Assembly: GCA_964016885.1 (NCBI GenBank)
Contig: OZ024747.1
Location: forward strand, 38,068,001-38,132,000
Source: Eledone cirrhosa
Lineage: Eukaryota
DNA: 64,000 bases
Direction of reading: 5' to 3'
The notes beneath the pieces are model-generated. The model was not told the origin of the DNA. It ran no database searches and saw nothing but the letters and a program-made list of their open reading frames with translations. Shown here in pieces: positions 6,888-53,500 of this stretch. Positions within the stretch are counted from its first letter, which is position 1. Each line of letters begins with the position of its first letter. The translations under genes were made by a program, and so were the position numbers.

Positions 6888-7028
6888 TATGTATGTATGT
6901 ATGTATGTATGTATGTATGTATGTATGTATGTATGTATGTATGTATGTATGTATGTATCTATGTATGCATGCATGTATGTATATATGTATGTGTGTGTGT
7001 GTGTGTATGCGTGTGTGTATGTATGTAT
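6888..7028. repeat. (TATG)n/(TG)n compound microsatellite
   Basis: Direct reading. Confidence 0.96.
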
Positions 7029-7279: not shown

Positions 7280-7620
7280 TTTCTCAGTTCTGCATAAATA
7301 TTCTCCCTTTCGCTAAACTTTGATAATATATTGGCATCTGCTGGGCAGCTAAGTTCCATTTACTGTGCATGCTTTCTTTTCCCTGTCCCATATGATAATA
7401 TCTGGTCTGTTATGCCTGCATTTTATTGGGGTTTTACTGGAACATTCCACCAGTACTCTTTCATATTGTGTATATGGATGTCTTCCACATTGCTGTAGAT
7501 TTTAATTTTTTTTATTATCGGGGCTCTCGTTTCTACGCAAATGGTGGACAGTCCACCATTTGCCTCCTTCACGGAACCATGGTTCAACTAAGCACTCTTG
7601 CGATATTAACACATTTTGAA
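7280..7620 (-). mobile_element. Dong-type REL endonuclease fragment (older copy)
   Basis: KCRHNRPDIIIWDREKKACTV / MELSCPADANI, homologous to 2761-3432. Confidence 0.75.

Positions 7621-22768: not shown

Positions 22769-22806
<38 letters not shown>
17365..22806 (+). mobile_element. L1/Tx1-clade non-LTR retrotransposon, copy A (5' truncated, ~245-bp deletion in ORF1)
   Basis: ORF1 remnants (Asn-rich N-terminus, CYLCGSKGH knuckle, Pro/Thr-rich tail) and ORF2 APE (GSINARG, AISET, YLDRV, TDH) + RT + CPRC finger. AATAAA then (ATT)n at 22763-22806. Confidence 0.93.
19480..21366 (+). pseudogene. Tx1 ORF2 fragment: APE C-half + reverse transcriptase
   Basis: KSPGLEG, FRPITLLN, LDQSKAFDRV, VRQGCPLS, AYADD, INQEKS. 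Frameshifted from the APE start (19037-19450) and ends at a premature stop. Confidence 0.92.
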
Positions 22807-25800
22807 GAATGCCATGGTTGACGGAGGCTCGGCTCTGTAAGGTATTGTAAATTTTGACCGATATAACAATTGTAAATTGTTTAAAACTTTAACCAAATTG
22901 TAGACAAAAACACCCTCCTCCTCGTGAGAGGGGTCTTTCTGCCCGTTATTTGGCCCTTCGGGGTTAAATAACCGCTTATTGCGGTTTTGTGCCTAATATT
23001 TATTTTAAACAAAAAAAAAAAAACATGGCCACGAAAAATAATTTTCATAGGTCACTCCCACTCATTCCGTCTTCTTCTTCCTCAATCGTCACTACAGCAA
23101 AGAGAAGATTGTCTCTCTCCCTCCCTTCTCTTTCGCAAGCGACGCCAGTCAAGAAAAATCACGTGAAAATCATGGAACATTTCTCCACAACGACGACAAT
23201 GACGAAAAAGGTGTGCTGTAAATACGAAAATCCATTTCATTCGTCTGACGTCATGAATAATAGCAGTAGCAGCCGTAATAACAGCAGCAGCAGCAACAGT
23301 GACAAGGAAAAACAACAGTAGCATCCGAAACACCATCAGCAGCAGCATAAACAACAACAGCATTAGCAGCAACAGCAACAACAACAGCAGCAGCAGCAAC
23401 AACAACAACAACCACAGCAACAGCGACGGCGGCAGTAGTCGTAGTACCTGCAGCAACAACAAAAGTAACAGCAGCTCTGACGACGACAACAACAAGAGCA
23501 GCAAAGAAAAACCAACTTCGTTTGCAGGTATCGCAAAGAACCTGGAAACCATCCTCATAACAAATGAGGAATTACAGGAAGCGAAGAAGATGGTGACGAA
23601 AAGCGGTCACCGAGCAATCTGCAAGGCAGCCGAAACATTTTTCGAAACCCAACAGCACTGTACGGTCACGTACCGTACAGTAAGCAGAAAATCACGTAGG
23701 GTTGAAAGAGCCACAGAGGCTCAAATACAAAAAGCCTTAGGGTCTGTGTGGCAGCGGAAAACGCATATCACCCGAGGCAAAAAATATGTCACCGTAGACG
23801 TGCTTTTTGCCACACCCCAGGAGGCAAAGGCTCAATCCTTAGTGACGCTAAGGAGCGAGGAAATGGTGTTGGTGCCCTCATACTGCGGGCAAAAAATTGT
23901 GAGGGTCAAACTGCCCTACGTCCCCCCCCCGGGATGGCCCCTTTTTGGCTGGCCGCGTCTGTCCTCGTCGGAATCGAGGACAAAACAACTGTACTGCAAG
24001 TACAGAAAAAAGTAAGAGAAGATTGGGTCGGCACCTCCATTGAGATGTTAATCCAAACCAACCAGGAGTGCATAGAAGCTATCCCGGATGTGATAGACTT
24101 CGATAACGGCACTCAACTGCCTATAAGTGTTGAGGGCAAACGCCCGAAATGCTTTCGCTGTGGATCGAAGACTCACCTCAGGGCCTTCTGCAACGGGAAG
24201 ACCCTGAGAAAGGAGAAAACCCCCTCCTTCCGAAACCGGCTCCACGGCTACCAGCAACAGGACAAACGGCAACCAGGAACGATAGGTCCGTGGCACTCAT
24301 ACCCACACCACGGAAATCAAGTACAGCAGCAGCAGTGGAAGTATTAACAACAACAACAGTAATACCAAATGCAGCTGCAACAGAGAGTCCACTGCAAACA
24401 TCACCAACAACAACAAGTGAAAGAGTGGAACTGGTACCCCTCCCCGACCTCACATAATCAGACATGGAGTTTGAGGTGGGAGAGGGATGGCAAAAGGTCG
24501 TAAGAAGGCACACACGCAGAAGCAGCGCATCGTCGCCTTCGAAAAGGGAGGAAAGAAATGAAAAAAGGGTAAAGGCTACTGCAAAGAGATTCACAGCAGC
24601 AACACCACCAACACCATCACCACCCACACTAGCACCACCATCACCACCGGCGACAACTCTACCGCCATCAACAACAACACCTTCAACACCACCACCACAA
24701 GCAGCAACATCGCAACCACAACAACAAAACACACACACCCAGCAACAACGACAAGAAAATAACAGAACCACAGCCCACCTCCAGACAAAACAAATGCACG
24801 GCAATAAATACACGCAACAAGAAACTAATGACTTACATAATATAACACACAGACATTTCACAGCACGACTACATAATACCAGCACCAATCAAAACGCCAA
24901 CGAACATAAGACTGGTAAAAATAGCACAGAAACAATACACAAACATTAAAACGAAATTCTCCAACGCAATTGGTGATTTCAGAGACCTAGGAGGGAATCT
25001 CAACCGGAGAGTATATTCGGACATACTCATAGAAGAGCCGACGACCAGCCGAAGGGGCGATTCAACGGTCTCTTCACCAGACGATCAAGTGAAAAGGGAT
25101 GGAGAAACCATCCTTCCTCTACTTAAAGTACGGTAAGTGGTCTTTCCCATCATTTCCACTCACTCAGAATAGGCAGCATAAATGCGCGTGGCTTGGGGCC
25201 GTCATGGAAGCAGGGTCACCTGCTCAAAGACCTCAGGTCACTAAACATAGATGTAGTGGCCATCAGCGAGACCAGAATCTCCGAAGCTCGGGCCTTCGCA
25301 CCGATCTTCAACGGCTACGACGTGTACGCATCTCCCAGCCGTCCTGGATCGGGGGGAGGAGTTGCTATGCTTTTTCGGAGAGGTTTGGATCTCGCCATAC
25401 GGGCCATCTTCCTGGACCCAGACGGTAAGTTGGTGGTGTTGGATGTGACCAGCGGAGACGGGCAAGCTTTCAGGCTAGTGGCCGTCTATGCCCCGACAGG
25501 AGCAGGGCGGCCTGATTTCTTCCGGCGTCTGGAGACCTTTCTTGGAACGTCCCGCTCTTTAGTGTTAGTGGGCGACTGGAACGGGATCTTAGATGCACGC
25601 TGGTATTGTGTGAGATTAGCGGATAGGGGTGGAGTGTGCAAGAGCCTCACCAACCTGCTAAAGGCGTTTTGAACTGTCTGACAGGTATCGATTGGATTTC
25701 CCGAATGTGCCAATGTGGACTTGGACAAATCGTATCATATCTAGATAGAGTATTTTGTAGGGAAATAGATAGGTCTAGCATAGGCTGTCCACAATTTAAG

Positions 25801-28749
25801 ATAGTCAGCTACACGGACCACAAATTCGTGATCTGTGTGCTTGACTTAGATAGGCTTCATAGACGAGGACCCGGCTACTGGAAGCTAAACTCGTCCTTAC
25901 CAGCGCGCAAGGCCTACAGAGACCGGATTAGCGAACTAGTGAAGCGGGCGTTGACGGTGGCAATCGTCAACAACAGTGATGGTTCACCCTGAAAAGAGCG
26001 ATTAGAATAGAATCCATTAGGTTTAGTAAGGCTTTAGCCATAGAGAAAAATAGAGCAGAGGGAGAACTAGTTAGAAAATTAGACGAGGCGCTTAGCAAAG
26101 GCATTGCGACCGACGTGCTTGCGGCGTAGGCTGCGTTGTCAGAGCTAGGGTGCGTGCTCTCAGACACGAGGGGACGAAAGCCGTTTAATGGGCCCGAGTG
26201 GCGGAGGCACATCGTGGCAGCAAAGCCACGATCCGGTCTTTGGTGTACCACGACGGGCGCATACTACTCGATCCCTGGCAAATGTGTGAAGCTTTTCAGC
26301 GACACTTCGCTCAGCTGTTCGGGGGCAGCGGTGGGCCGGGTCGAGGGATGGACTTTAGTGTCTACCTCGACGGACTGCCGCGGCTCTCGGCCACTGAGGC
26401 GGAGTGTTGCGAAAAGCCGATAACAGCCGCTGAAGTACGGGAGGCAATGACTGGCTGCACAAGGGGTAAATCGCCTGGTTTGGATGGTCTGCCCTATAAA
26501 CTTTACGTACAGATGCCAGACTTGTTCGGAGGCCTCTTGGCGGACGTCTACTGCAACTGGCAACCGAACGGGAGCCGAGGAGCGGTGGCGCTGCTGAGAA
26601 AGGATCCGAACAAGGGGGATAACATAGATAATTTCAGGCCCATAACTCTGCTAAACACAGAGTTCAAGATTTTGGCCAAGCTGCTAGCAAGTGGTTGGCG
26701 CTTGTCGTTGGTGGTCTGGTGGGAGAGGCGCAGACATGCGCCATTCCCGACAGATCCATCCACAACAACCTCCACCTCATGCGATACATCGTAGAGAGGG
26801 GAGCTAGGGAAACTGGCACGGGTGGGTCCTTGATCAATTTAGATGAATCGAAAGCTTTCGATACGGTCGACCATCGTTACCTGGCGGCAGTCCTGAGGGC
26901 GGCTGGCTTTGGGCCCGTCTTCAGAGGCTGGATCGCTGCCATGCACAGCGATATCTGCTCTGTGGTGAGAGTGAACGGCCACCTTTCGGAACCATTCAAC
27001 ATCATGCGCTCGGTCCGCCAAGGATGTCCCCCTCTATTCCCTCTTGTAGGTATTGACTCTCGAGCCATTACTGCACAAACTGGAGACGTTGAGGGGGGGT
27101 CCCGCGCGAACTAGGATGCGGAAGATCCGTGTCAGCATATGCGGACGATGTCACCGTAGTGGTGTCGAACGCCAAACACATCGAGGCGATCGGCACTACA
27201 CTAAGAGAATACGAAGCGGTGACAGGAGCAATGATCAACCAGGAAAAGTCTGTGGGCCTGCAGCTCGGCACCTGGAGAGGCAGGTCCATGCCGTCCAACA
27301 GCGTCGTCGGGCGCTGGACGGACGGACCGGTTAAATTGCTAGGGGTCTGGTTCGGTCCAGACCTCCAGACGGACAAAAACTGGGACGAGGTGACGAGCAG
27401 GGTGGCTTCTCTCACCCAGAAATGGGCGGAGAGGAAGCTATCCCTGAAAGGTCGAGCGGAGGTGGCTAACGCGTACATCGCGTCCGTCATCTACTACCGC
27501 CTGACCGTCGTACCTTGTCCTAAGCCCCACCTGACCGCGCTGGAGCGTTTGCTCTTTCGCTTTTTGTGGAAGGGACGCGCTCCGATGGTCAGGCGGTCCA
27601 TCTGCTGTCAACACCCGCTACGTGGAGGGCTGGGCATTCCGTGGCTGATGATGCGCAGACACGCGCTCAGGCTACGACATCTCCACCTCTTCCTCGACGG
27701 TGATCAGGTGTGGTCGCCGTTTGCTAGACACGTTTTTCCCCAGCTCGTCTCCTTGACGGAGCTGCAGTCCTGGGTCAAGCGAAGACCGAGAGGGAGCGCT
27801 TGGAGACTGGAATGTCTTCAGGCGCTCACAGCCCTCGACCAATCGGGCAATATGATCGGTGGAAACTCCACCTTGGCGTTCTATAGGTGATCAGTGGAGG
27901 GGAAGAGCGACGACATACTTGGAGAAACTCTAGGCGTCGACGAAAATCAACTAGCCAATCTCTTCGGAAGGACTTTCGGGCCGGGGCCTATGGACAACTT
28001 CCAGAAATCCCTGGCCTGGCAGTGCTACCGAGGAGCTTTGCCAGTTCGGGATAAACTCTACAGGAATGGAGGTGCCGTCAGCCGGGCATGTCCGAGATGC
28101 GCGCAGGGCGACGAAACCGTCCTGCACGCACTCGTCCAGTGTCCGAGCATTGCTGACTTGTGGGTTTATGTCGAACACCTGCTGTCACGTGTAGGACGGA
28201 TCCAGCTATCAGCTGAGTCCATCGTGAGGATCGCCCCGCCCTCTTCCTTTAGCCGGGAAGGGCAGGAAGTTTTGATCTGTCTGGTGGCCATGGCGAAAGA
28301 GATAGTATGGTGGACACGTTTGAAAGGGCTGAAGACGAGCACTTACCTCTTCGGTGATGCCCTAATTAACTTTTTCAAATTTCATTTGAAAAGGAAAATC
28401 AGGGTAGAGAGGGAAGTGCTCTCTTCCCAGCATTTTGTTGAAAGATGGGTGAGAGAAGCAAGTATGGCCCGAATGAATGGGCCTTCTCTGAGTATGTGTC
28501 TGTAAATTAAAGGTGGAAAACTGGGAGAGGGCACTTGCCCTGGTGGTCAGGACCACTATGGTCTTTTAATGGGCTTTCACCACAAATGTCCCTCGGAAGT
28601 CTCCCCCCCTATTGGGGAATTTTTCTTTGTTATTTTATTTCAACCTCTGTTTTTTTTACACGCAGAAATGCCCATTTGTACCGTCCTGTATTGTCCTGTA
28701 CTGTCCTTAATGTCTACTTTATGTAAACCCTTGTGGTTAATAAAGAAAA

Positions 28750-28783
<34 letters not shown>

Positions 28784-28789: not shown

Positions 28790-31700
28790 TGAGTCTCAGT
28801 CATTGATGTTATTTAACTGGAAAGTCTGTAGAAATGAATATCAAGCCACTACCTGCAGCCTCACATATTCAGGACGTATCTGAGGGTTCTTGCTGCTCCC
28901 AGCAAGCATGCCTTTTGAAGTGTTCCAAAAAGCGGGGCGGGACCAATTTTCTTTAACCATCCTTGGAAATCCTTTGAGATAGTACCTAGTGCGCCTATGA
29001 CCTCATGGCAGTTCCAAATCCTTTTTACCTCCCACTTTAAGTCCTGGTATCGGTTAATTTTCTCCCTCTCCTTGCACTCTCGTGTCGAATGGGCAGGCCA
29101 CATCCACAATCAGGCACGATCTTTTTTCCTTGTCCAAAACTACCAGGTCAGGTCTATTGTGTTCCAGTTTCTTGTCCGTCTGTATCCTAAAATCCCACAG
29201 CACCTTCACCTGATCGTTTTCTATCTTATGCTCTGGCTTATGCTCATACCACTTTTCAGAATGTGGTAAATTGTTTACTTTGCATAGGTGCCAGTGGATC
29301 ACCCTGCCCATCACATTATGTCTCCAGCCTTTATAGTGAGTCTGGGCTAGGTGTTTACACTCGAATACAATGTGAGCCACAGTCTCCTCTCTCTCTCTCT
29401 CCACAGATCCTGCACAGTGGGCTAGACTCCTCCTTGTAAATATGGTGTTTCAGCCACTTCGTTTTTAGGGCCTGCTCTTGCGTAGCCATTAACATTCCTT
29501 CTGTAGCCTTTTTAAGGTCTCCTCTTCTCAACCAGCTCCATGTCTATGGATCTCTGATTTCCGTTTTCTCAAAGGTACTATGAAGGGATTTTTCATGAAG
29601 GTTGCTCTTTCTCCTCGTTGTTATTTCCTCCTTGGACATCCCCTGGTTCATTGTCCTCTCCTTCAGTACAATTCTGAGCATTGGCTCCTTACTATCGGTC
29701 ACGTATTTGTGTAGGTTGTTTTTCTCCATTTGAACACAGTCCTCATGCTGATAAGACCTCTTCCACCTTCAGATCTCCTTAGGTAGAGTCTATCGACATC
29801 ACTCCTCTTGTGGAACATGTTGTAGATAGTCAATAGCTTCTTTGTCTTCCTATCCATTTCTTTTTGTTCAGCAACATTCCATCGCAGAATTCCCGCACTG
29901 TACCTAATAATAGACACAGCTCGGGAATTTACTGCACTTATGAAATTCCTACTGTTCAGATGTGACTTTAATACGCTCCTTACTCTCCGAATGTATTCAG
30001 ATCTTATCAATTCCTTCATTTTTTTTGTTCTTGATGTCATCAGCCTCCAGAACACCTAAATACTTGTATTCTTCTTCAGTATCAATTTCCTTTATCTTCT
30101 CACTTGTTGGTATCTGGAATCTGTTGCTTCTGCTCAATTTACCCCTCTTCATCACAAGGACTCCACACTTACTAATACCAAATTGCATACATATATCGTT
30201 GCTGAACATACGGAGAGTGTCAACAAGCAAATCCCACTTTTGCTCAACAGATGTCTGATGTTATCTGCCACCCTGAAGATCTCTAGGCTTTTGGTTATCC
30301 AAGAATGAGGTACCATGTCGAATGCCTTTTTGTAGTCTATTCATCCCATGGCAAGACCAGTGTGTCTCCTCCTGCAATTCCTCATTACCATCTTTTCAAT
30401 AAGTAACTGATCCTTTGTACCTCGGGACTTCTTCTCGGGAGTTGTTTATGTGGAGGTGATGGTAGATTTCCTCAGATAGAATGCTTGTCAACAATTTCCA
30501 CATTACGGACAGACATGTGATAGGTCTATAGTTGGTAACATCATTACCCTTGGTTCGGTCTTTCATTACCAGAACTGTGGTACCTTTTGTCAACCACTCT
30601 GGTACCTCGCCTGACATCATGCAGTCATTGAACATGGTTGTCAGTTTCGGGTGGAGGGATGTTATATTTTTAATCCAATACCCCTGCATACCATCTGGGC
30701 CTGGTGATTTTCAGTTGCTTAGTTTTCTGGCCTGTCCCTTAAGAGTTTCAACTGTGATATTCAAATCAGTTTGTTGGTGTGCCTGTTCACTAATCCCTTT
30801 TGTACTGTCTCAATCCACACTGCCTGATCATTACGTTCAACATCCTGCTCCCATATACCTCTCCAGAATGTCTTAGTTCGTTCCGCCTCAGGTATCAAGT
30901 CGTTGCCTCTTTCTTTTCCTTCAAGCTGCCAAACAACATCTGGTTGTTGTCAAACATGCGGTTCTGTCTATACTGACTGACTCTGCTCTCGTATCGCCTA
31001 ATCTTTGCGCTCTTTGCTACAATGCGTTACTTCAGCTCCACTATGATAATATTAAGCTTTTTCCTCCTAGTTTTGTACTTTACTCCCAGTCTATTTTTAG
31101 TGTCTATATTTTGTAGTGTCCCATTCAGTAGTGACTCAAGCTTTCCAATGTCGTTTATCATTTCCCCGATTTGACCATCCAGTCGTTTCTTCCATCAAGG
31201 TTCTGATCTTTATTGTTTGTTGTTTCCTCTCGTTGTTATGCCAAGTAATTTCCTCACTACATTTGCTGCTACTTTGAGGATATTGTTGCATTGGTGAAGA
31301 TTCCTCGCCTCAAGGTATGGGATGACTTTGTTAACCTTAGCTCTTGTTTCTTTTAACCTTTTCCTTTCTACAAATCTTAGGTTTCCCACTATCATTGTTC
31401 ATTTGATCTACCACTAAGTTCAGGATATCAACCAAATCTTGTCCTAGCTCGTCAGCATTCATTTCCTAAATGGCCGTATCTTTGTTCCAGATGTTATTTA
31501 TTTCAGCATTAAGATCATTGTCTGCGTCGGATGCTTCCTCCGTTCTCTCAACCTCTTCACCATTATTTCCCACTGGTTCATTTGCCTGACATACTCCACT
31601 CTCCATGTTCAACCTAATCTCTCTGCTCAGTTATTCCAGTTCCAACTCGCTTATCCATCCATTAGTTCTTATTATCCGAGTTTGCCCGGCCAATTTTTGT

Positions 31701-32127
31701 TCATCTAATTTAAATAGACCAATCTTGTTCCAGAAGTTATACATACGTTTCCTTTAGCCTTTTTCCTTGGGGTTACACTTCAGGTAACTTTCCATGACAG
31801 TTATACTCAATTCTTTCATCCAGTTGGTGCTTGTCCCTTTCCTTCTTCTTCTTCCTCCAACACCAGCTGTATTTGGATGACACCCAAGTCCCTGCTGCTG
31901 GACCACGGGCACTTGCTGGGTGAGAGTCTGTCCCATAACGTTCCAGTCTCCTCTTCACCGTTATTCGAACTGTTTAGGTTCGATATTTAAACACTCATAT
32001 CGAGGATTGGTGAATGTATGGTTACATAACCACCGGGGATTTCATCGCCCCCATTTATTTCATCACCCCCGGTGATTTTAGCGTGGCACCATCACGCTGT
32101 AGACGAACATAAATAAACAAACAAATA
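28790..32127 (-). mobile_element. R4/Dong-clade element, (TAA)n-tailed family, RT catalytic core deleted
   Basis: N-terminal WMKELSITVMESY, NWKSPGPDG, NYRPITC, YKYLG, CRIC...HIVFEC, HNRPDLVV...DVACP, IGALG. The 3' end runs into (AAT)n. A deletion at ~30235 removes QGD...DD. Confidence 0.9.
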
Positions 32128-35100
32128 CTTTTCGCAGTATAATGGTCAGGGGTATCATGGCAAGGACAAACAACAGAGGGGACAAACTATCTCCCTGGAA
32201 GATACCTCTCTTGATCTTCACGCCTCCCAGGGATTCTCCACCCGATGTTAACTCTGTTTCCCAGGACTTCATACTTTTGCTCAACAACTGTCTGATGTTA
32301 TCTGCCCCCTTGAAGATATTCTAGGCTTTTGGTTATCTAAGAATGAGGTACGATATCGAATGCCTATTTGTAATCTATCCATCCCATGGCAAGACCAGCA
32401 TATCACCTCTTGCAATTCTTCATTACCATCTTATCAATAAGAAACTGGTCTTTTGTACCACGGGACTTCTTTCGGCAGCCTTTCTGTTCGTCCGTTAACA
32501 TGTTGTTTATGTGGAGGTGATGGTAGATTTCAGACACAATGCTTGTCAACAGTTTCCACATTACGGACAGACATGTGATAGGTCTATAGTTGGTAACATC
32601 AATACCCTTGATTCGGTTTTTCATTACCAGAACTGTGGTACCTTTTGTCAACCACTCTGGTACCTCACCCGACATCAAGCAATCATTGAACATGGTTGTC
32701 AGTTTCGGAGGGAGGGATGTTATATTTTTTAATCCAATACACCTGCACACCATCTGGGCCTGGTGATTTCCAGTTTTTTAGTTTTTTGGCCTGCTCTTTA
32801 AGAGTTTCAACTGTGATACTCAAATCAGTTTGTTGGTGTGCTTGTTCACTAATATCCTTCTGTACTGTCTCAATCCGCACTGCCTGATCATTATGTTTAA
32901 CATCCTGCTCCTATTTTCCTCTCCAGAATGTCTTAGTCTGCTACGCCTCAGGGATCAAGTCGTTGCCTCTTTCTTTCCCTTCAAGCTGTCCAAACAACAT
33001 CTTGCGGTTCCGTCTATACTGACTGACTCTGCTCTCATACCGCTTAATATTTGCACTTTTTGCTACAATGCGTTGCTTCAGTTCCTCTATGGTAATATTT
33101 AACTTTTTCCTCCTAGTTTTGTACTTTATTTCCAGTATATTTTTAGTGTCTATGTTTTGTAGTGTCCCATTTAGTAGGGACTCAAGCTTTCCAATGTCAT
33201 TTCTCATTTCCTTGATTTGACCATTCAGTCGTTCCTTCCACCAAGGTTCTGGTCTTTTTGTTTGTTGTTTCCTCTCGATTTTATGCCAAGTAATTTCCTC
33301 ACCGCATTTGCTGTTGCTTTGTGGATATTGTTTCATTGGTGAAGGTTCCTCGCCTCAAGGTATGGGATGACTTTGTTTAACTTAGCTGTTGTTTCTTTTA
33401 ACTTTTTCCTGACTACAAATCTTAGATTCATAGGTTTTCCACTATCATTGTTCATTTCATGTACCACTAAGTTCAGGATATAAACCAAATCTTGTCCTAG
33501 CCCGTCAGCATTCATTTCCTCAACAGCCGTATCTTTGTTCCAGATGTTATTTATTTTAGTATTCAGATCATTGTCTGCTTCGGATGTTTCCTCCGTTCTC
33601 TCAACCTCTTCACCTTCATTTCCCACTGGCTCGTTTTCCTGACATACTCCACTCTCCATTTCCAACCTAATCTCTCTTCTCAATTCCTCCAGTTCCAACT
33701 CGCTTATCCATCCATTAGTTCTTATTACCCGGGCCTGCCCGGCAAATTTTTGTTCATCTAATTTAAATGGTCCAATCTCGTTCCAGATGTTATGCATCCG
33801 TTTTCTATAGCCTTTTTCCTTGGAATTACTCTTCAGGTAACATTCCATGACAGTTCTACTCAATTCTTAGGTCCAGTTGGTTCTTGTCCCTTTCCTTCCT
33901 CTTCTTCTTCCAACACCAGCAGTATTTGTATGACCGCCAGGACCCTACTGCTGGGCCAGGGAGCACAGCGCTGGGTGAGAGTCTTTCACATGACGTTCCA
34001 GTCTCCTTTTCACTGTTATTCGAACTGTTTAGGTTCTACATTTAAGCACTCATATCGAGGATTTGTGAATGTCTAAGGCGGGTAAAATTCCCGAGATCCA
34101 TGAACGAGTTCTCTCCAGCGGTCTCTGTCCCTCATTATCGATGCCATGTCCTGCGTCTCCAACAGACCAGTGTCTGTCCTTAGGGCATCAACATACGTTA
34201 ACCTTGGTCTTCCTCTTCTAGTGTATCCATGTAGAGGCTCCCAAAGGAGCACTGTGTGCAATGTCAACTCTGGATGTCGGTGAGCATGTCCAACTAACCT
34301 CAATCTCCTCTGTGTCACTTTTGAGCTGACTTTTGGGATGTTCCCATACAGCTCTGAGTTTTTCATCCTCAGTGTATACTGATTAAAGTTCACAGCCATC
34401 CTCAGCATTCTCGTGTAGCACCCATCCACCATCTGAGTGAGCTTCTTGGTCAGTGTCCAAGTCTCAGACCCATACAGCAGCACAGACTGCACTACAGCAT
34501 TGAAGTGGCAGATTTTCAGGTCTCTACGAAGGTCCGACTTCCACACCGATCTCAAGCTGTGGCACGCCGCCCAAGCCTTGCTCTTCCTCTCAACCACATC
34601 ATCTTCCGTATTCCCAATCTTTGCTCCCAAATACAGGAAGCCCTCAACCAATTCTAGCGGCTTCCCGCCTACATTAGTGATCCCCTCTGGCTTCTCAACA
34701 TTCTCTACCAGATATTTTGTTTTAGTCTCATTCATTCTCAGCCCCACACTCATCGACACAGTCTCAACCTCCCGCATCATATCCTTTGCCTCCTTCACTG
34801 TATTTGTCACCAAAACTATGTCGGCAAATTCAGCATCCGATACCTTTTTCGCCCTAACTCTCCTGCTCTGAGCAGGTGCTACAGTAAAGCCAGAGTCCTG
34901 GTGTTTCTCCAGTGCAAGGCGCATACAATAGTCCACTACGATGATAAAAAGGTAGGGAGCCAATGTATCTCCCTGGAGCACTCCAGCCAGTATCTCAAAG
35001 AACTCAGTCATCCCATCAGGTGTAATGACTTGGGGTTTGGTGTTGGTGTAGATCAGTGATATCAGATCCACTATATCTTCTTGGGGATTCCATAAGCCTG

Positions 35101-37500
35101 TAAGATCTTCATCAGGCAGTAACGGTCCACAGAATCAAAGGCCTTCCTAAATTCAATGAAAACCATGACCGCAGGAAGGCACTTTGGTTGATATAGCCTC
35201 TCTGAAGCCGTTCTGGTTGTCCCTGAGCTTCTTCTCCATCTCAGGCTGGATCCTGTTAAAAATCATCCTGTTGAGGGTCTTTGCCACAAGTGACGTCAGT
35301 GAGATCCCACTGTAGTTGTTGGTGTTAGAGAGATCTCCCTTCTTTGGCACTGGGACGATGTTACTGATCATCCACTGATTCGGGGCAACTCCATTCTCCA
35401 GTGCCCCGTTACAGAACCCCAGGATGATATCATCAAAATCACACCTCTTCATCACCTCTGATGCCACTCCATCTTCTCCATGAGCCCTGCCCTCCTTGAT
35501 CCTCTTCTTGGCTCTCTGAAGCTCCCCTCTGGTGAAGGGCTCTGTCTCAACATCCAGTTCCTCAAACAGCCGCCTGATCTCCCCAGTGCTCTGGGCTGTG
35601 GAGGGTGGCTCTCCTAGTAGGGTCCTAAAATGGTCTAGCAATTTCCTCTTCCTATCCTCAGGCGCCGTTCCCTGGATCTGACTCGAACACCTTCTCTTCC
35701 TCCCTGTGATCTCGTTGATGATCATCCAGCTCTCCTTACATCCAGATCTGTCAACCGCTCTCTCCACACTTCTGATCTTCTCTATCAGTTCCTCCTCTCT
35801 GACCTCAGTGTAAGCCGTACAGAGCTCTTCCCTCATCACCTCCACAGTCGTCATCCTCTCCTCCGTAGGATCAGCATAGAATTGGTCCTTGGCAGCGTTC
35901 AGGTGTTCTCTGGCTGCACACACTTTTGGGCTTGCAGAGCTGACGTGCTTCCCTTTGTTCTTTTTCCTCGGCACCAGGATTTCACTTGCTTCCGCCACTG
36001 CATTGGTGAAGTGCCCGTACCTCCTCGTCACACTTTCCTCAGTCCATCCAATCTCTCTCTCTCCTCTGACTCTTCACACAGATCACTAAACTTGTTTCTC
36101 ACTTCCACTGTGAACCTCTCCTGTAGCTTATCATCTTCCTTGAAAACTCCCCAGTCATAGATTGCTTTCCGGGGCCGAGCCTTGCTCTTTCTTAAGCTCA
36201 CCCGGACCTCACTCATAACAAGCCGGTGGTCACTACCCAGTGTACTGAAATAGTTGTATGGCTCTGTGTTCAGAACACTATTCCGCCACTTTTTCCTCAC
36301 CAGAATGAAATCAATCTGGGACTTGGACAGGTGCACATATGAGATGTAGGTCCACATCTTCCCCAGATTCTTTCTAAACCTTAGGTTGGTCGCCATCAAG
36401 TTCGTCTCCAGCAGGGTGTCTTTCAGTAGTCTTCCATTTCGGTTGGTGTTGTTATGGAAGTACAAGCAAGGATCTTCACTGCCCTCCTTACTCAGCTGTG
36501 CATTGAAGTCCCCCAAAACAAGCAGGATATTGTGTGCCTGAGTGGTGTTGACAGCTCTACACACCTCCTCATGGAACTCTTCCGCACTCACACCACTGTC
36601 CCCCTCGTTTGGACTATAGGCTGAGATGACTGTCAGTCTTGGGTTTCCATTGAAGGTTACCCTCAACACTCGCGGGGAGATAGGCATTATTTCCCTCACC
36701 AACAGATTGGTTTTTGCACTGAACACAAAACCCACTCCTCCTACTGCAGCATTTGTTGTGTTCTTCACTGCCGTTGTAGTGATGAGCTGGCTCCTCTTCC
36801 CGATCATCACACTCCTCACGGGCTCATCGTGAAGGATCCTGTGTTCTTGTTTCGCAAGTATCTGTATACCACTCTCCTCGAACAGATATCCCAACTCCTC
36901 TCTCTTCTCCAGCGTCCGAATAGTCCTCACATTCAAATTGCCCATTTTGATGGCTCTTCTGCAGGACAAAACTGCATTCTTTATATTTGTGTCAGAGACA
37001 GCTGATCCATCATCCACTGGCCCTCTCTGTGGTTCTAAGCCAGCAGAGTCATAACGACCAGGCTGCTCCTTGACAGTGTAATTAGGGGCTCTAATCCTCG
37101 TGCTGTTATATCGACTCTCCATATTTCTTTTCAATGGCTGATAATACCTTACCGGCGCCACTCGAATAAGGTAGTTATTTAACCCATAAATGGAGCCCTA
37201 ACAGGTACTACCACCCCGGCGGAAGCAATGGGAGACCTGGGACTCATGACAACTAAGGGGTAACTCCACATTCCCCACAACTCCTGAACTCCCGAACTGG
37301 AGCCTTGCCATTGGATGTAGTTTAATGCCATACCCAGTGAATGTATGGTTACATAACCACCGGGGATTTCATCACCCCCCCCCCCCAGTGATTTCATGAC
37401 CCCCGGTGATTTTAGCGTGGCACCATCAGGCTGTAGACGAACATAATAAATAACCAAATAAATAAATAACAACTTTAAAAAATAAACATGTTTCATTGTA
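32128..37500 (-). mobile_element. R4/Dong-clade element, same family, 5' half only, with an RTE element nested in its 5' UTR
   Basis: 32128-34072 is collinear with 30240-32017 and extends to GIFQGDSLSPLLF. The 5' leader resumes at 37337 and matches 32010-32125. Confidence 0.9.
34073..37336 (-). mobile_element. Essentially full-length RTE-clade LINE (APE-RT single ORF broken into 3 pieces), 8-bp TSD
   Basis: ORFs 36028-37161 (APE: LNVRT, QEHR, GDFNA, IDFILV, SDH), 35153-36031 and 34073-35071 (RT). TSD GTGAATGT at 34065-34072 and 37337-37344. Empty site visible at ~32010. Confidence 0.95.
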
Positions 37501-37726
37501 ATGTTTGAATGTCTGACTTAGTTTATTTATTTATTTTTTTCCTTTACGTTTTTCGTTTTTCAAGGCCCGTAACGTCGGTTACTAGTGTTGTTGTTGCTGC
37601 TGCTGCTAAGGGAAGTAGGGGTTGTTGTGTTCAAAACTTTTGAATTTTGTGTTTGTTGTTGCGTTTTCTTCTGTCTGTGTTCTGTTCTATAAATTTTCCA
37701 CTTTTTGCTTATTATTATTTTTTAGT

Positions 37727-37918
37727 GGCGGTGGATTGGCAGTATCCGTAGAGGGTCGGACGCCATGCTTTGTAGCATAGTTACGTCCCTTTACGATCTG
37801 AGTTCAAATCCCGCCGAGGTTGACTTTGCCTTTCAGCCTTACGGGGTCGATAAAATAAAGTACCAGTAATGCACTGGGTAATTGCTGGCCTTGTGCCTAA
37901 AGTAGAAACAATTATTAT
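37727..37918 (+). mobile_element. tRNA-derived SINE, copy 1
   Basis: A-box-like tggcagtatccg, B-box gagttcaaatcc, (ATT)n tail; three related copies in the window. Confidence 0.85.
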
Positions 37919-37926
37919 TTTTTAGT

Positions 37927-38113
37927 GGCGGTGGATTGGCAGTATCCGTAGAGGGTCGGACGCCATGCTTTGTAGCACAGTTACGTCCCTGAGTTCAAAT
38001 CCCGCCGAGGTTAACTTTGCCTTTCATCCTTACGGGGCCGACAAAACAAAGCACCAGCAACACACCGGGACAATTGCTGGCCCGTGCCAAGAGCAGAAAC
38101 AATTATTATTATT
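37927..38113 (+). mobile_element. tRNA-derived SINE, copy 2 (tandem to copy 1; clustered T>C changes)
   Basis: Head nearly identical to copy 1; 3' part carries 10 T>C substitutions. Confidence 0.85.
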
Positions 38114-38707
38114 ATATTATAGTTTAGATTTGACATCGTTTAAACTAACCATTTTGAGAGAGTTTAGAGATACAACAACAATAATTATTTTGGTGTTGTT
38201 GTTGTTGTTGTTGTTGTTAGCTGTTTGACCGGGTCACTAAATCAGTCTATTTATATCTTTTGATGCCTTCCTCCCTTCTATTCATGTGTAGTGGCACTAC
38301 GACCATCCGTCTCTTAACAGGAGGTAGTGAGGAAATAGTGGTGGTAGTGATGATGCAGTGGTGGCGGTGGTGATGGGATAGTGATGTTGTTGCTGCAGCC
38401 GTTGGCTAAATTTGTTGTGGTAGTGGTGATGGTGGCGGCGGCGGTGGTGGTGTTGAAATTATTTGGCTGTTGTTTGTAACCATTTTCTTTTTTGACTATA
38501 ACATTTCTGATACAAAATTAAATATTAAGTATTGGAGCCCTATGCCATAATGTGATGCGTTGTCACTTCCTGAGAGTTGGGACTGGCATCTTATGTTCCA
38601 TTTGTAATAAGAATTATTCTATCACAATTGTTTTAAATATGTAAAACATCAAAAACTTGCGGGAGCGATTCCACAACACTCAATCCACCATGTGCGTATA
38701 TTCCCTA

Positions 38708-38753
<46 letters not shown>
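38708..38753. repeat. (ATT)n microsatellite
   Basis: Direct reading. Confidence 0.97.
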
Positions 38754-38754
38754 G

Positions 38755-38958
38755 AAGGGCAGTGGATTGGCAGTATAGGTAAAGGGTCGGATGCCATGCT
38801 TTGACGTATAGAGTTACGGCCTTTGCCATTCTGTGTTCAAATCCCGCCGAGGTTAACTTTGCCTTTCATCCTTACGGGGTCGATAAAATGAAGTACCAGT
38901 AATGCTCTGGGTAACTGTTGGCCTTGTGCCAAAGGTAGAAACAATTATTATTATTATT
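38755..38958 (+). mobile_element. tRNA-derived SINE, copy 3, with (ATT)n tail
   Basis: Collinear with copies 1 and 2. Confidence 0.85.
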
Positions 38959-41900
38959 CAAGGTGAAGCCAAGCTTCTTACCTCGTTTTTAACCGTTCTA
39001 AACTTTTTATTCAAGTTTCAAACTTGATAAAAGTTTAGAAGAAGTGACCCACCTAATACAGGGGTTCACTCGTAAATAAAACGGCACCCCTTTACGGGGT
39101 GTCGTATTGTGTAAAAATATTATAAAAAAAAATTCTTTCAACATGGATAACACAAGAAAGAGAGAGAGCGCTGTCACCCAACACAGAGAGAGGGAGACTT
39201 TGACAGCATATCAACAAGACAGCGTTCCAGCGAAGGTAAATTTAAAAGAAAATATTACGAAGGAAAAGAGGAACAATAGCAGTTTTAATGATATTGTTAC
39301 AGATTTAAAATTACCAAATATTTCTAACACAAACAACACCAACATTAACACCAACAACAACACAATCAATAACAACAGCAACAAAAAAATAACAGCAGTA
39401 AGATCGAGAACGACAATAACAAAAATAACAGCGGTAAGGTCGAGAACGACAATAAAAATGACAATAACAACAGCCACAACAACAATAATAGTAGAAATAG
39501 TATCAACAAAAACAACAATAATAACAACAGCCACAATAACAGTAACAACAGCAACAGCATCAACGAAAACAACAACAACAGCAACAACAGTACCAACGAA
39601 ACATCAACAATGACATCGATACCTGCAACAGCGATCTCAGCACCACCAGCAGGGCCAGTAGCGGCAGCAATAGTGGTGCTGCTGAAACAAGGACCACTTC
39701 TTTTGCAGGTGTCGCCCGAAATATCGAAACAGTGTTAGTCACAGTGAGGAGATGGCAGTCGCAAGGGTCATGGTGACAAGAAGGGCCAATAGAGTCTCCC
39801 TGAAACCTCCACCCGATTTTTTCATGGACCAGCAGCTACGGACAGTGACTTACTACAGCGTAAGCAAAATCTCACATCGGGTGGAGATAGCCACGGAGGC
39901 TCATATCCCAAAGGCCTTGGGGTCCGTCTGGACACGCAAAACCCACATCACCCGAGTCAGAAAGTACACCACAGTCGACGTAGCTTTCGCCACCACCCAA
40001 GAAGCGAAGTCTCACACTTTGGAAACCCTAAAGAGTGAGGAGATAGACTTGGTGCCCTCCTACTGGGGCAGAAAATTGTGAGGGTCAAAGTGACTCAGGT
40101 CCCACCCGACGTGCCCATACCTTGGCTGGCCGCGGCTGTCCTTGCTGGAATCGAGGCCAGGACGACCATGCTGCAAGTAGAGAAAATAGGGAGAGAGAAC
40201 TGGTCATGTATAGGCATGCAAATGCTTATACAAACTGACCAGGAATGTATCGACGCTATCCCCGATATCATAGACATCGAGGAAGGATTCCAACTCCGTA
40301 TAAGCCTAGGAGGAAGACGGCCAAAATGTTATCTCTGTGGGTCAAAGGGTCACCTCAGGGCCTTTTGTCCGCAGAAGACAGCGAAGAAGAAGGCCCCTCT
40401 CCTTCCAATACCTGGTCCGCTGCTACCAAGAGCAGGGCAGGCAACGAACGCCGAAGCCCCTTCTACGGTGAGTAGGAGGGCAACGTCCGTGGCACCCGTA
40501 CCAAGGCCACGGACACTAAAGCAGCAGCATCAGTGGCGGCAACACCAGTAGCTACATTTGCAGTAGCTACACCAGCAACAACATTGCCGGAGAGGGCTCC
40601 ACTATCACCACAAACAGCCGTGGAGTACATACCCCTCCCAGACGCCACGGAATCCGAAATGGAGTCTGAGGCGGGCGTGAAGTGGCAAACGGTCTGCCAC
40701 AAAAAAGAAAAAAGAAAAAACCCTTAGCTTCACCCTTCAAAAGCAAAGGCACACAAAGAGGGGTAAAGGCTGCAAGGAGACTTGCAGCAACACCTCCACC
40801 ATCACTGCCACAAGCCCTACCGACAACAACAACCACACCGCCACCAGCATCACCAAAAACACCAACAACACAAACAAAACAAAACACACACACCAAATAG
40901 CAACGAAGAAAACAGCAACAAAATCAACCCTTCTCCCAAAAAGTACACAGCCATAAACATGGCAAAATAAAGAACTCATACAATATATAAAGCAGCACAC
41001 AGACATCACAGAAAAAAAACTACTACACCCCCACCAACACCAAGAACTATCCCGACAATCATAAGCATCATTGATATCAAAATAGAACAGTAAAAACTTT
41101 TAAAACAAAAATTCCCCAACGCAGTTGGAGACTTCCGAGGGTCAGTTACCAAGAGGATATACACTGACATCCTCTTGGAAACATCCATGTCCAGTCAAAG
41201 GGCTGGTTCTACTGTCCCTTCACCACACGATCAAGGTAAGTGACCCTTTCTCACTTGACCCGTTTCTCATCCAACATGGCCGTACTTAGAATAGGCAGTA
41301 TAAATGCACGTGGCCTGGCGTCACCTTGGAAGCCGGGTCACATGCTCGACAACCTCAGGTCGCTAAACAGATGTGGTGGCCATCAGCGAGACCAAAATCT
41401 CCGAAGCACTAGCTTTCGCACCGATCTTCGGCGGTTACGATGTATACAGATCTCCAAGCCGTCCAGGATCGGGGGGAGGGGTTGCCGTCCTTTTTCGGAG
41501 AGGCTTGGATCCCGCCATACGGGCCATCTTCCTGGACCCAGAAGGTAAGTCAGTGGTACTGGACGTGACCGGCAGCGAAGGCAATGCTTTCAGGCTAGTA
41601 GCCATCTACGCCTCAACTGGGGCAGGACGGCCAGATTACTTTAGACGTCTAGAGACCTTTCTTGGCACGTCCCGCACTTTAGTGTTAGTGGGCGACTGGA
41701 ACGGTATCTTGGATGCACGCTGGGATTGTGTGGGGCTAGTGGATAGGGAAGGAGGGTTCAAGAGCCTCACCAACCTGCTCAGATGTTTTGAACTGTCTGA
41801 CAGGTATCGACTGGATCACCTAAATGTGCCAATGTGGACATGGACAAATCGCATCGGGTCATCCAGATCGTATCTCGATAATAGGGTATTCTGCAGAGAA

Positions 41901-44829
41901 CTAGATAGGTCTGGTATAAGTTGTCCACAATTTAAAATAGTCGACTACACAGACCACAAATTTGTGATCTGTGAGATCGACATAGAGAGACTTCATAGAC
42001 AAGGACCCGGTTACGGGAAGCTGAACGCGTCTTTCCAAGCGCGCAAAGCCTACAGAGACCGGATTAGCGTATTAATTAATCGGGCGTTGACGCGAGCGAT
42101 CGTCAACAACAGGTGGTGGTTCGCCTTGAAAAGGGCAATTAATGTAGAGTGGATTAGGGTTTGCAAAGGACTAGTGTTAGAGGAAAATAGAGTAGAGGGA
42201 GATCTAGTCAGAAAGCTAGAAGAGGCGTTTAGGACAAGCATCGCAACCAACTTGCTTGCAGCGAGATTGGCACTCAACCAATTCTTCAACGCAAAACACG
42301 AAGGCTGCCTTGTCAGAGCTAGAGCGCGTGCTCTGAAACACGAGGGGACAAAAGCCGTCCAATGGGCCCGGGCGGCAGAGGTGTGATGTGGCAACAAAGC
42401 CACAATTAGGTCTTTGCTGAACTCTTCTGGAGCAGCGGCAGGCCGGATCGGGGTATGGACTTCAGTGCATACCTCGACGGACTGTCTCGGCTCTCGACGA
42501 CCGCAGCACAGTGTTACGAAAAGCCAATAACAGCCGGTGAAATACGGGAAGCGATGGCTAACTGCACGAGAGGTAAATCACCAGGTTTGGATGATCTGCC
42601 CTACGAGCTTTATGCATTTATGCCAGACTTGTTCGGTGACCTCATGGCAGACGTCTACTGCAACTGGCAGCAGAACGGGAGCATTCCCAGTTTTCTGAGC
42701 CGGGGAGCGGTGGCGCTGCTGAGAAAAGACACGAACAAGGGGGATGTTATCGATAACTTGAGGCCAATAACCCTGCTAAACGCAGAGTTCAAGATTTTGT
42801 CTAATGTGTTAGCAACGAGGTTGGCGCTTTTCGTCAACGGTCTGTTGGAAGAGGCGCAGACATGCGCCACCCCGGACAGATCCATACAAGACAACCTCCA
42901 CCTCATGCAATACATCATAGAGAGGGTGCTTAATGAACCTGGCGGCGGTCCTCGAGGCGGACTGTTTCGGGCCAGTTTTCAGGGGTTGGATCGCTGCGAT
43001 GTACAGCGACATCTGCTCAGTTGTGAGAGTGAAAGGTCACCTGTCGCAGCCGTTCAGTATCATGCGCTCGGTCCGCCAGGATTGTCCCTCTCGTCCCTCT
43101 TGTGCGTATTCGCTCTCGAGCAGTTACTGCACAAACTGGGGGCGATGAGGTGCGTCCCACGCGAACTAGGATGCGGGAAATCTGAGTCGGCTTACGCCGA
43201 CGCCTTCACCGTAGTGGTGTCTCGCAGCAGACACGACCGGTTGCGCGGCACCGCTCTCAAGGAATACGAAGCGGTGACAGGAGCAAAGATGAACCAGGAA
43301 AAGTCGGTGGGCTTGCAGCTCGGCACCTGGAGAGGCAAGTCCATGCCGTCCGACAGCGTCGTGGGGCGTTGGACGGACGGACAGGTTAAATTGCTTGGGG
43401 TCTGGTTCGGACCGGACTGAAGCGTGGTGACGAGCAAGTTGGCCTCCCTCACCGAGAAATGGGCCGAGAGGAAGCTGTCCCTAAAAGGCCGGGCGGTGGT
43501 GGCGAATGCGTACATCGCATCCGCCATCTTCTACCGCCTCACCGTCGTCCCTTGCCCCGGCCCAACTCTCACCAAAATGGAGCGCCTCCTCTTCCGCTTT
43601 CTGTGGAAGAGACGCGCACCCACCGTCAGATGATCCATCTGCTGTCAACGCCCGTTGCGTGGAGGACTGGGCATGCCATGGCTGATGATGCGCAAACATG
43701 CGTTGGGGCTGCGACATCTTTGGTGCTTCCTTGACGGTGAACAGGTGCGGTCGCCGTTCGCCAGGTACGTTTTTCCACAGCTCGTCTCCTCGGCGGAGCT
43801 GCAGTCCTAGGTCAGAAATTAACCGAGGGATAGCGCTTGGAAACTGGAATGTCTCCAGGCGCACATCGCCCTCTGCCAGCTGGGCACCAGTATCCGTGGA
43901 ACATCCACCTCGGCGTTCTATAGAGGACTAGTGGATGGGAAGAGCGACGACGTTCTCGGAGAGATCCTGGGCGTGGAAGAAGATAAGCTGTTTGCTCTCT
44001 TCCGGAGAACTTTCAGCCCAGGGCTTATGGATAACTTCCAAAAATCCCTGGCCTGGCAGTGCTACCGGGGAGCGTTACCGGTACGAGATAAGCTCTACAG
44101 GAACGGAAGTGCCGTCAGCTGAGCCTGTCCGAGATGCGCGCAGAGCGACGAAACCGTCGTGCACGCACTCGTTCAGTGTCCGAGCATTGCTGACTTGTTG
44201 AGCTATGTCGAACAGTTGCTGTCGCGTGTAGGACCGATCCGGTTATCGACTGAGTCCATTGTGCAGATGGTCTCGCCTTCTCCCTTCGAGGAGGAAGGGC
44301 AGGCGGGTTTCATCTGTCTGGTGGCCATGGCGAAAGAGATTGTGTGTTGGATAAGGTTGAAAGGGTTAAAGACAGACACTTTCCTCTTCGGCGATTCCCT
44401 GATTAACTTTTTCAAATTTCACTTGAAGAAGAAAATCAGGGTGGAGAGGCACGTGCTGTCTTCTAGCAAGTTTGTTGACAGGTGGGTGAATGTAGCGAGA
44501 ATGGTCCGAGTGAACGGGACCGCTCTGTAGCTTGAGGAATGGGAAGAAATTGAGAGAGGGCGCTTGCCCTGGTGGTCAGGGTGGCTGTAGTCTTTTGTGT
44601 GGTTTCGCCACGAGTAACTCTCGGGGATTTCCCCCCTATTCGGGAATTTTTCATTGTTTCAATTTTCATTTTTATTGTTTATATATATATGTTTATATGT
44701 CTTTTTTTCTTTTCTTATATAAATAATAAAAATCTTTACACGCACAAAACCCACATCGTACCGTCCTGTACCGTCCTGTGCCGTCTGTAATAGTTTTCTT
44801 GGTGTCATCCCTTGTGGCCAATAAAGAAA

Positions 44830-50439: not shown

Positions 50440-50570
50440 TGATTATACGGAACAGGAAGGACAACCGTATGAACACGCATGCGCAAAAACGGTCACTCCA
50501 CCCGGCATTACAAGGCTGCGTGCGAGAACTGTAGGGGAGATAACTGCGAAAGTCCGAAAGGTTCTAGGGG
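50440..50570 (-). mobile_element. Inverted, diverged homolog of the Penelope-like 3' terminal region
   Basis: Reverse complement of 50446-50497 matches 49636-49687 at 44/52 nt ungapped; reverse complement of 50530-50559 matches 49577-49606 at 23/30 nt. Confidence 0.75.
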
Positions 50571-50571
50571 A

Positions 50572-53500
50572 GGTAGGATATGAAAATATGTAATGGGGAG
50601 ATAGGATAGTAAAATATGGTAATGGGGAGATAGGATAGTAAAATATGTAATGGGGAGATATGATAGTAAAATATGTAATGGGGAGATAGGATAGCAAATT
50701 ATGTATTGGGTAGATAGGATAGTAAAATATGTAATGGGGAGATAGGATAGTAAAATATGTAATGAGGAGATAGTGTGGTAAACTATTTAATGGGAAGATA
50801 GGATAGTAAAATATGTAATGGTGAGATAGGATAGTAAAATATGTAATGGGGAGATAGGGTGATAAACTTATTAATAGGGAGATAGAATAGTAAAATATGG
50901 TAATGGGGAGATAGGGTGATAAACTTATTAATAGAGAGATAGGATAGTAAAATATGGTAATGGGGAGATAGGTTAGTAAAATGTGTAATGGGGAGATAGG
51001 ATAGTAAAATATCTAATCGGGGGATAGGAGAGTAAAATATGTAATGAGGAGATAGGGTGGTAAAATATGTAATGGTGAGATAGGGTGGTAAAATATAGTA
51101 CTGTGAGATAGGATAGTAAAATATGTAATGAAGAGATAGTACAGGAAAATATGGTAATGGGGAGATAGGGTGGTAAAATATGTAATGGGGAGATAGGATA
51201 GTAAAATGTGTAATGGGGAGATAGGATAGTAAAATATCTAATAGGGGGATAGGAGAGTAACATATGTAATGAGGAGATAGGGTGGTAAAATATGTAAGGG
51301 TGAGATAGGGTGGTAAAATATAGTACTGTGAGATAGGATAGTAAAATATGTAATGAGAAGATAGTACAGGAAAATATGGTAATGGGGAGATAGGGTGGTA
51401 AAATATGTAATGGGGAGATAGGATAGTAAAATACGTAATGAGAAGATAGTACAGGAAAATATGGTAATGGGGAGATAGGGTGGTAAAATATGGTAATAGG
51501 GTGATAGGAAAATAAAATAATGTAATGAGGAAATAGGATAGTAAAATATGTAATCTGGAGATAGGATAGTAAAATATGTAATCGGGAGATAGAATAGTAA
51601 AATATGTTATCGGGAGATAGGATAGTAAAATATGTGATGGGGTGATAGGATAGTAAAATTTGTAATGGGGAGATATGATAGTAAAATATGTAATGAGGAG
51701 ATAGGGTGGTAAAATATGTAATGGGGTGATAGGGTGGTAAAATATGTAATCGGGAGATAGGGTTGTAAAATATGTAATGGGGAGATAGGATACTAAAATA
51801 TGTAATTGGGAGATAGGATAGTAAAATATGTAATAGCGAGACAGGATGGTAACATATGTAATGGGGAGATAGGATAGTAAAATATGTAATGGGGAAATAG
51901 GGTGGTAAAACATGGTAATGGGGAGATAGGATAGTAAAATATGGTAATGGGAGATAGGATAGTAAAATATGTAATGGGGTCATAGGATAGTAAAATATGT
52001 AATGAGGAGATAACGTGCTAAAATATAGTACTGGGGAGATAGCATAGAAAAATATGTAATGGGGAGGTAGGATAGTAAAATATGTAATGGGGAGATAGGA
52101 TGGTAAAATATGTAATAGGGAGATAGGAGAGTAAAATATGTAATGAGGAGATAGGGTGGTAAAATATGTAATGGTGAGATAGGATAGTAAAATATGTAAT
52201 GGCGAGAAAGGATAGTAAAATATGGTAATGGTGAGATAGGGTGGTAAAATATAGTACTCGGGATATAGGATAATAAAATATGTAATGAGGAGATAGGGTG
52301 GTAAAATATGTAATGGGGAGACAGGATAGTAAAATACGTAATGGGGAGATAGGATAGTAAAATATATAATGGGGAGATAGGATAGTAAAATATGTAATGG
52401 GGAGACAGGATGGTAAAATATGTAATGGGGAGGTAGGATAGTAAAATATGTTAATGGGGAGGGAGGAGAGTGAAATATGTAATGGGGAGATAGGGTGGTA
52501 AAATATGGTAATGGGGAGATAGGGTGGTAAAATATGTAATGTGGAGATAGGATAGTAAAATATGTAATCGGGAGATAGGGTGGTAAAATATGTAATGGGG
52601 TGATAGGGTCGTAAAATATGTAATGGGGAGATAGGAAAGTAAAATATGGTAATGGTGAGATAGGATAGTAAACTATGTAAAGGGAAGATAGGATAGTAAA
52701 ATATGTAATGGGGAGATAGGGTGGTAAGATATGGTAATGGGGAGATAGGACAGTAAAATATGGTAATTGTGAGATAGGATAGTAAACTATTTAATGGCAA
52801 GATAGGATAGTAAAATAGGTAATGGGTAGATAGGGTGGTAAAATATGTAATGGGGTGATAGGGTGGTAAATATGTAATGGGTAGATAGGGTGGTAAAATA
52901 TTTAATGGGGAGATAGGATAGTAAAATATATAACGGGGAGATAGGATTGTAAAATATGTAATGGGTAGATAGGGTGGTAAAATAAGGTAATGGGTTGATA
53001 GGATAGTAAAATATGTAATGAGGAGATAGGGTGGTAAAATGCGTAATGGGGAGATAGGGTGGTAAAATATGTAATGGGGAGATAGGATAGTTAAATAAGT
53101 AATGTGGATATAGGGTGTTAAAATAGGGTAATGGGAAGATAGGATAGTAAAATATGGTAATGGGGAGATAGGATAGTAAAATATGTAATCGGGACATAGG
53201 ATAGTAAAATATGTAATGGGTAGATAGGATAGTAAAATAAGTAATGGGTAGATAGGGTGGTAAAATATGTAATGGGGAGACAGAGTGGTAAAATATGTAA
53301 TGAGGAGATAGGATAGTAAAATATGTAATGAGGAGATAGGGTGGTAAAATATGTAATAGGGAGATAGGATAGTAAAATATGTAATGGGGAGACAGGGTGG
53401 TAAATTATGTAATGGGGAGAATGGATAGTTATATATGTAATGAGGAGATAGGGTGGTAAAATATGTAATATTGAGATAGGATAGTAAAATATATAATGGG

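Follow-up and report, generated by a model that had tools for sequence, protein, structure and literature searches.

How does a short stretch of a SINE come to carry ten changes of one kind and almost none of any other? The question is raised by one of three SINE copies in the stretch of Eledone cirrhosa DNA analysed here (64,000 nt, hereafter the window). Between positions 38038 and 38094, comparison with the SINE family finds C in place of T on the plus strand at 10 of 15 family Ts; apart from these, the span differs by just one A>G (38091) and a gap of 1 nt. All ten sites lie where the initial annotation had placed them. It had also counted an eleventh, 37978, and put TA context at about 7-8 of 11; TA context holds for 7 of the 10, whereas the C at 37978 is a frequent polymorphism of the SINE family, not an edit, and does not belong to the patch. 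Chance is excluded as the origin of the patch: the probability of at least 10 changes among 15 Ts is 2e-21 at the per-T rate of 0.0039 found in one-off SINE inserts, and 2e-10 at an assumed rate of 5%. Dense sense-strand A-to-G clusters like this one, limited to predicted dsRNA stretches, are numerous in the mobile elements of this genome. Judged from sequence comparisons, ADAR-type editing of LINE dsRNA very probably made the patch, and a reverse transcriptase very probably fixed it in germline DNA.

An assembly or base-calling artefact can be discarded. Miscalled bases are rejected because a paralog about 150 kb off (L002, G000:C7:37955095-37958284) has the identical ten changes despite 3-5% divergence elsewhere. 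Short-read contigs (one sample, possibly the assembly's own) match the C-rich sequence exactly over 38020-38083, and the patch is multi-copy: used alone as a query, it gave at least 42 matches (best 40 scored of 946 candidates). The same annotation had asked whether the C-rich variant is a multi-copy subfamily. Multi-copy it is, but not a free, independent SINE subfamily, as neither unrelated flanks nor insertion sites of its own were seen: all 30 of the fetched loci with the C-rich patch share the flanks of the host LINE, and the SINE head is absent in most.

The patch lies in an old, 5'-truncated SINE fragment of family F1 (38016..38113, plus strand; 48 pieces sampled), which stands antisense in the 5'UTR of a LINE and has multiplied with it. 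This LINE is on the minus strand, so in its sense strand and RNA the plus-strand T>C changes read as A>G. An unedited SINE head (37925..38015, plus strand), seen among the sampled copies only in L002, was later joined to the edited fragment, which makes copy 2 a chimera. The initial annotation had taken the position of the changes towards the 3' end as a sign of reverse transcription; this apparent bias arose because the later, unedited head joined an older, edited 3' fragment, and in another carried insert it is the 5' half that holds the edits. The surrounding 5' part of the host 5'UTR (37337..38707, minus strand) contains an (ATT)n that is a SINE insertion hotspot, and a (TAA)n microsatellite (38708..38753, minus strand) lies at the 5' end of the LINE. 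SINE copy 1 (37711..37916, plus strand) is unedited, belongs to a different subfamily and is missing from L002; copy 3 (38758..38952, plus strand), likewise unedited, lies beyond the host LINE. The remaining host 5'UTR and broken ORF remnants, a tandem second copy included, occupy 29699..34072 (minus strand), with longer ORFs in sister copies. Between the two parts lies an unrelated LINE with APE endonuclease and RT (34073..37336, minus strand); it was rejected as a candidate host, being itself inserted into the host LINE. Copy 1 is flanked by an exact 67-bp duplication (its first 67 bp, 37711-37777, equal 37911-37977) that takes in the resident SINE head; it may have been inserted with homology joining its 5' end. 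L002 and window positions 36210-38753 form an inverted duplication with about 95% identity across the left 1.7 kb, the inserted APE-type LINE included.

The host LINE is about 4.5 kb long, and (TAA)n surrounds both its ends. Its single ORF holds an RT (Pfam RVT_1, with a weak zf-RVT match), a zinc knuckle and a C-terminal motif, recognised by eye, that we take to be the restriction-like endonuclease motif; it has no APE domain, and R2 proteins are its best solved relatives. As this domain set fits and the (TAA)n ends match the Dong target, the element appears to belong with Dong/R4-like elements, a placement made by domains and target. In the available part of the pertinent source, Dong elements have TAA repeats as target, and members of the Dong/R4 clade share with the host the location in (TAA)n and a lone ORF that encodes RT, a zinc knuckle and a restriction-like endonuclease motif (PMC3812793); unlike them, the host has a SINE hotspot inside its 5'UTR. 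Along the host LINE body strand bias is absent (0.0121 vs 0.0116, ten mixed tandem-copy loci left out), and an overall tendency of the host enzyme towards A>G was not seen.

The hotspot permits a comparison between SINE inserts that travel with the LINE and inserts that arrived once. An edit-blind flank probe gave 133 exact matches, and 136 host copies were examined from it and from other probes. The (ATT)n site is vacant in some of these, and the remainder carry 206 SINE pieces. T>C per piece is bimodal, with 0-1 in 100 pieces, 2-3 in 4 and at least 4 in 102; A>G reaches a maximum of 4. After removal of a duplicate row (L176), the edited pieces resolve into four shared inserts (48, 7, 28 and 16 pieces), each with its own start point and set of sites; two more edited pieces sit together in a single host copy. 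A tree of non-SINE sequence, covering 87 of the 136 copies (the other 49 were too short), sorts the edited inserts by host lineage with support of 1.0 for the F2 clade and 0.96 for the F1 clade, some label noise coming from tandem copies. Among the unedited pieces (n = 103) junctions are nearly all unique; one shared carried insert (L050, L053, L141) is unedited too. Hypermutation is found in four of five carried inserts vs two of about 100 one-off inserts, those two in a single host copy (Fisher p = 1.5e-5). Carried inserts go on gaining changes after insertion: counted from the founder state onwards, their T>C per T is 0.040, a value inflated by shared descent, vs 0.0039 in one-off inserts, and the distinct post-founder sites in carried inserts comprise 23 T>C and 9 A>G. 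Outside the hotspot set, 7 of 245 SINE pieces hold a T>C cluster, each with host-family signatures, and A>G clusters among these 245 number zero. The hotspot itself (window 37700-38120; host copies L061-L209) accommodates up to nine consecutive pieces (L180), and the SINE direction shows one exception among the 206.

These counts bear on the option that the initial annotation had put first, namely that ADAR acts on the DNA in the RNA:cDNA hybrid during reverse transcription of the SINE. If so, any SINE insertion should show T>C in the sense of the RNA that was copied, over the full length of the hybrid. The option fits the single copy in the window, where T>C falls on the sense strand of the SINE with seven of ten sites in TA, but one-off inserts are almost never changed and changes accumulate after insertion. 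Matched genome-wide probes for four shared TA sites speak for it: beside 153,388 exact unedited matches they gave 90 in which three or more T>C stand, and 7 with three or more A>G. A few T>C singletons without a detected carrier (L287, L289) also accord with it.

After the probe search 37 further loci were inspected; five of them with 3-7 T>C amid many other changes (L265, L272, L274, L276, L280) were excluded from all tallies. More events lie directly upstream of APE-type LINE ORFs, where antisense SINEs show T>C (L257/L279, L264/L269/L275, L277), and at L286, where SINE and carrier run in the same direction, A>G is seen. All 14 events whose carrier could be oriented have A>G on the carrier's sense strand (14/14), the direction of one carrier, a short element, being inferred from its tail and L283 being linked to its carrier by adjacency only. 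At L282 and L283 the one-strand rule holds across three arms each. A carrier was sought at the inspected loci and none was found at L282, L284, L285, L287 and L289. The apparent strand conflict at L287 comes from an inverted duplication (L287:4400-5700) of a stretch already holding an edited SINE piece. At five dispersed loci a short element contains a head-to-head SINE pair in which the two arms are altered on the same strand, at partly different sites. The pair is predicted to fold as a long hairpin (z = -10.9). In its sense arm 49 of 112 As are changed in paired stretches vs 0 of 78 in unpaired ones, and the loop is unchanged though both arms are changed. The direction of change tracks the carrier strand, not the SINE, since sense SINEs show A>G (L286, the hairpin arms, L283); the changes end with pairing and reach microsatellites that are not SINE. 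Because of the strand rule and the unedited one-off inserts, editing of SINE cDNA is contradicted for the carried cases and we hold it to be extremely unlikely. The second option of the initial annotation, an edited antisense RNA, is supported, A>G following the carrier's sense strand. APOBEC-type editing, which would mark first-strand cDNA along an element regardless of RNA structure, does not fit, as changes stop where pairing stops. Two elements met in this survey deserve mention. The short element (L281:4250-5350, L288:7351-7965, L260:2599-3305) is high-copy, about 0.6-0.75 kb long and without a long ORF; it sits in (ATGT)n or (AT)n and seems to bring upstream sequence along. L286:1381-4500 has a 1040-residue open frame matching endonuclease, RT and PHD-finger, possibly a young LINE family.

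An edited copy and its unedited parent can be compared directly at one locus. L288, on C2, reproduces 3.2 kb of a C18 region, with an abrupt start inside a repeat array and its end at the tail of a short retroelement; the C18 parent has the same SINE junction and no edits. In L288, 74 of 202 As (37%) are changed to G in repeat stretches, comprising an antisense SINE, a (CTA)n array and a second SINE-like piece, vs 4 of 642 (0.6%) elsewhere. One further change in the edited stretches is not A>G, no A of 66 is edited in the (TAG)n arm (0/66), and outside the repeat stretches the two copies differ at 16 of 2,042 nt (0.8%). L288 has the traits of a retrocopy produced through target-primed reverse transcription, being dispersed, 5' truncated and ended at a retroelement tail with the parent present; a TSD is unreadable inside the microsatellite. 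Microsatellites in edited copies are likewise A>G (L288:5254-5515 and 6771-7350; L283:4823-4969). This would convert (CTA)n to (CTG)n and (AT)n to (GT)n, a possible origin of new microsatellite types.

The same pair weighs against two further explanations. An error-prone polymerase like eta or iota, or else a dATP-starved reverse transcriptase, could put G opposite T or U in patches, and a mild A>G excess among the fixed changes of the F1 and F2 host lineages (11/40) would suit it. The 37% and 0.6% of As changed within one and the same copy, the host LINE without strand bias, and hairpins with both arms changed and the loop spared speak against such an enzyme, and we find it very improbable. 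Alternatively, ordinary mutations might have been selected in source elements, mismatches lowering silencing by SINE RNA. An edited insert is present in 51 of 99 host copies in the edit-blind sample, and some shared changes other than T>C likewise break pairing. That F1 sub-lineages have changes other than T>C in common at all, e.g. A>C at two sites and A>T at one, counts against the editing reading. Yet selection would favour neither a single transition that preserves G-U pairs nor an order of 5' neighbours, and it cannot account for 74 changes in L288, a young dead end 0.8% from its parent elsewhere, nor for dead-end clusters as in L288 and the second-round copies L156 and L135. Selection alone is hardly credible as the source of the patch, but it may act on top of editing.

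The sequence context of the clusters agrees with ADAR. As with a 5' neighbour U are changed in 102 of 129 cases, with A in 98 of 141, with C in 28 of 83 and with G in 8 of 53 (19 pieces, 14 loci), counts that reuse identical SINE columns, which leaves their p-values approximate; the host set agrees. Of the neighbour preference that the initial annotation wished to see tested, the 5' part is seen (U and A favoured, G depleted). On the 3' side the sets disagree: the host set favours G and the A>G set A, and no preference appears when all are pooled. DNA polymerase eta shares the 5' U/A preference, producing A>G after A or T, and polymerase iota frequently inserts G opposite T, which suits the error-prone polymerase; the 5' motif alone does not tell ADAR from polymerase eta, which is disfavoured by the density of the changes and their confinement to pairing stretches. 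In the available parts of two studies 5' G is depleted in ADAR editing (PMC5625713, PMC8586724), and the avoidance of 5' G in our clusters appears to match this preference. Together with the A>G strand rule and the confinement to pairing stretches, it supports the adenosine-deaminase footprint that the initial annotation had suspected.

L282 takes a different position. Three edited SINE arms on one strand lie there in single-copy sequence (L282:3771-5346); neither a second copy nor an unedited parent is in the assembly, the edited form is present in reads at flank depth, and no unedited allele or relative was found among the contigs examined, which does not show absence. L282 is a candidate for conversion in place, as the assembly has no second copy and the reads show the edited form at flank depth. 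An in-place change of this kind, by a deaminase acting on genomic DNA hairpins or R-loops or by conversion of a native locus by edited cDNA, with no new insertion, misfits the patch in the window, which travels with the LINE, and L288, with its unedited parent; the parent of L282, too, may be lost or unassembled. As an account of the patch we judge it highly unlikely. The best reading of the fixation route is reverse transcription by retroelements, not gene conversion, L282 possibly excepted.

The preferred reading, editing of LINE dsRNA followed by reverse transcription, would run as follows. A LINE transcript with an antisense SINE would pair with SINE sequence, an ADAR-type enzyme would turn many As of the duplex into inosine, and the reverse transcriptase would read inosine as G and so fix the change in a new germline copy. 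Such events recurred independently; edited copies became source elements, later rounds added changes in sub-lineages, and other LINEs and read-through transcripts genome-wide were probably marked by the same route. ADAR genes are ubiquitous in metazoans according to the available text of one source (PMC5625713). For lone antisense pieces the partner would most likely be free SINE RNA, in trans: such pairing is suggested because no sense SINE inside the host is common to 71 long host loci and none lies within 16 kb around the L288 parent, and it would explain the excess of antisense cases. A bolder extension makes ADAR a heritable germline mutagen: LINE enzymes would routinely write edited RNA into DNA, edited sources would win by escaping dsRNA silencing (half of the sampled host copies descend from them), and edited cDNA would replace loci like L282 in place. 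This we put forward tentatively, as rather unlikely.

Several known systems, as described in the available portions of the papers cited, share features with these clusters. ADAR hyper-editing of inverted SINEs in RNA also gives dense A>G in repeat duplexes with 5' G depleted and both arms hit (PMC5625713); here, in contrast, both the genome assembly and DNA reads carry the changes, which have been inherited and multiplied. APOBEC-edited vertebrate LTR retroelements likewise have strand-biased clusters of a single transition and an unedited source copy (PMC4866542, PMC2873906). The present cases differ in being A>G and not G>A, in a predicted RNA duplex in place of single-stranded cDNA, in non-LTR elements and in pairing stretches only; in the portions available, the APOBEC-type screen calls clusters of the other mismatch types negligible and describes no editing in invertebrates (PMC4866542, PMC2873906). 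In the avian retroviruses RAV-1 and ALV, with ADAR-linked A>G hyper-editing, RT also copies edited RNA into DNA (PMC8586724). Those are infectious and concern somatic or cultured cells, whereas our cases are endogenous, probably germline, repeated over source lineages and driven by a SINE passenger. In plant mitochondrial retroprocessing, too, the genome receives an edited RNA sequence (PMC4987113, PMC2989974), but there as organelle C-to-U via gene conversion and here, presumably, as A-to-I in an animal nucleus, mostly through new insertions. ADAR1 restriction of human LINE-1 also has ADAR acting in the LINE life cycle (PMC5224506). The available part of that study reports no editing across more than 2.5 kb of L1 RNA (PMC5224506); here, in contrast, editing would be the visible product, and the edited lineages multiplied and did not die. 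Searches of the open-access literature, most subscription papers being outside the scope, brought up no case of nuclear non-LTR elements in which ADAR-type clusters had become fixed. A 2016 review, in its available part, describes the role of ADAR in SINE subfamily evolution and in mutational suppression of retrotransposition as not yet determined (PMC4982230).

On this question the genome studied here appears to offer direct cases of ADAR-type mutation of SINEs and LINEs, internal controls included. Edited RNA copied into inherited DNA would amount to a readable fossil record of RNA editing, and parent-copy pairs would be single-molecule records of germline editing, dated through divergence. 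The data point to trans pairing of SINE RNA with LINE RNA and permit testing whether editing restricts elements or helps them to escape silencing. In practical terms, A>G clusters can skew repeat ages, and RNA mapped to edited copies can mask true editing sites.

Rfam and ARAGORN gave no match within the window. Several plus-strand LINE copies, related to one another at 75-91% identity, retain remnants of endonuclease and RT at 39686-44530 and 17941-28780, and a large tandem array fills 50567-64000, its tested part having a 28 bp period with 83% matches.
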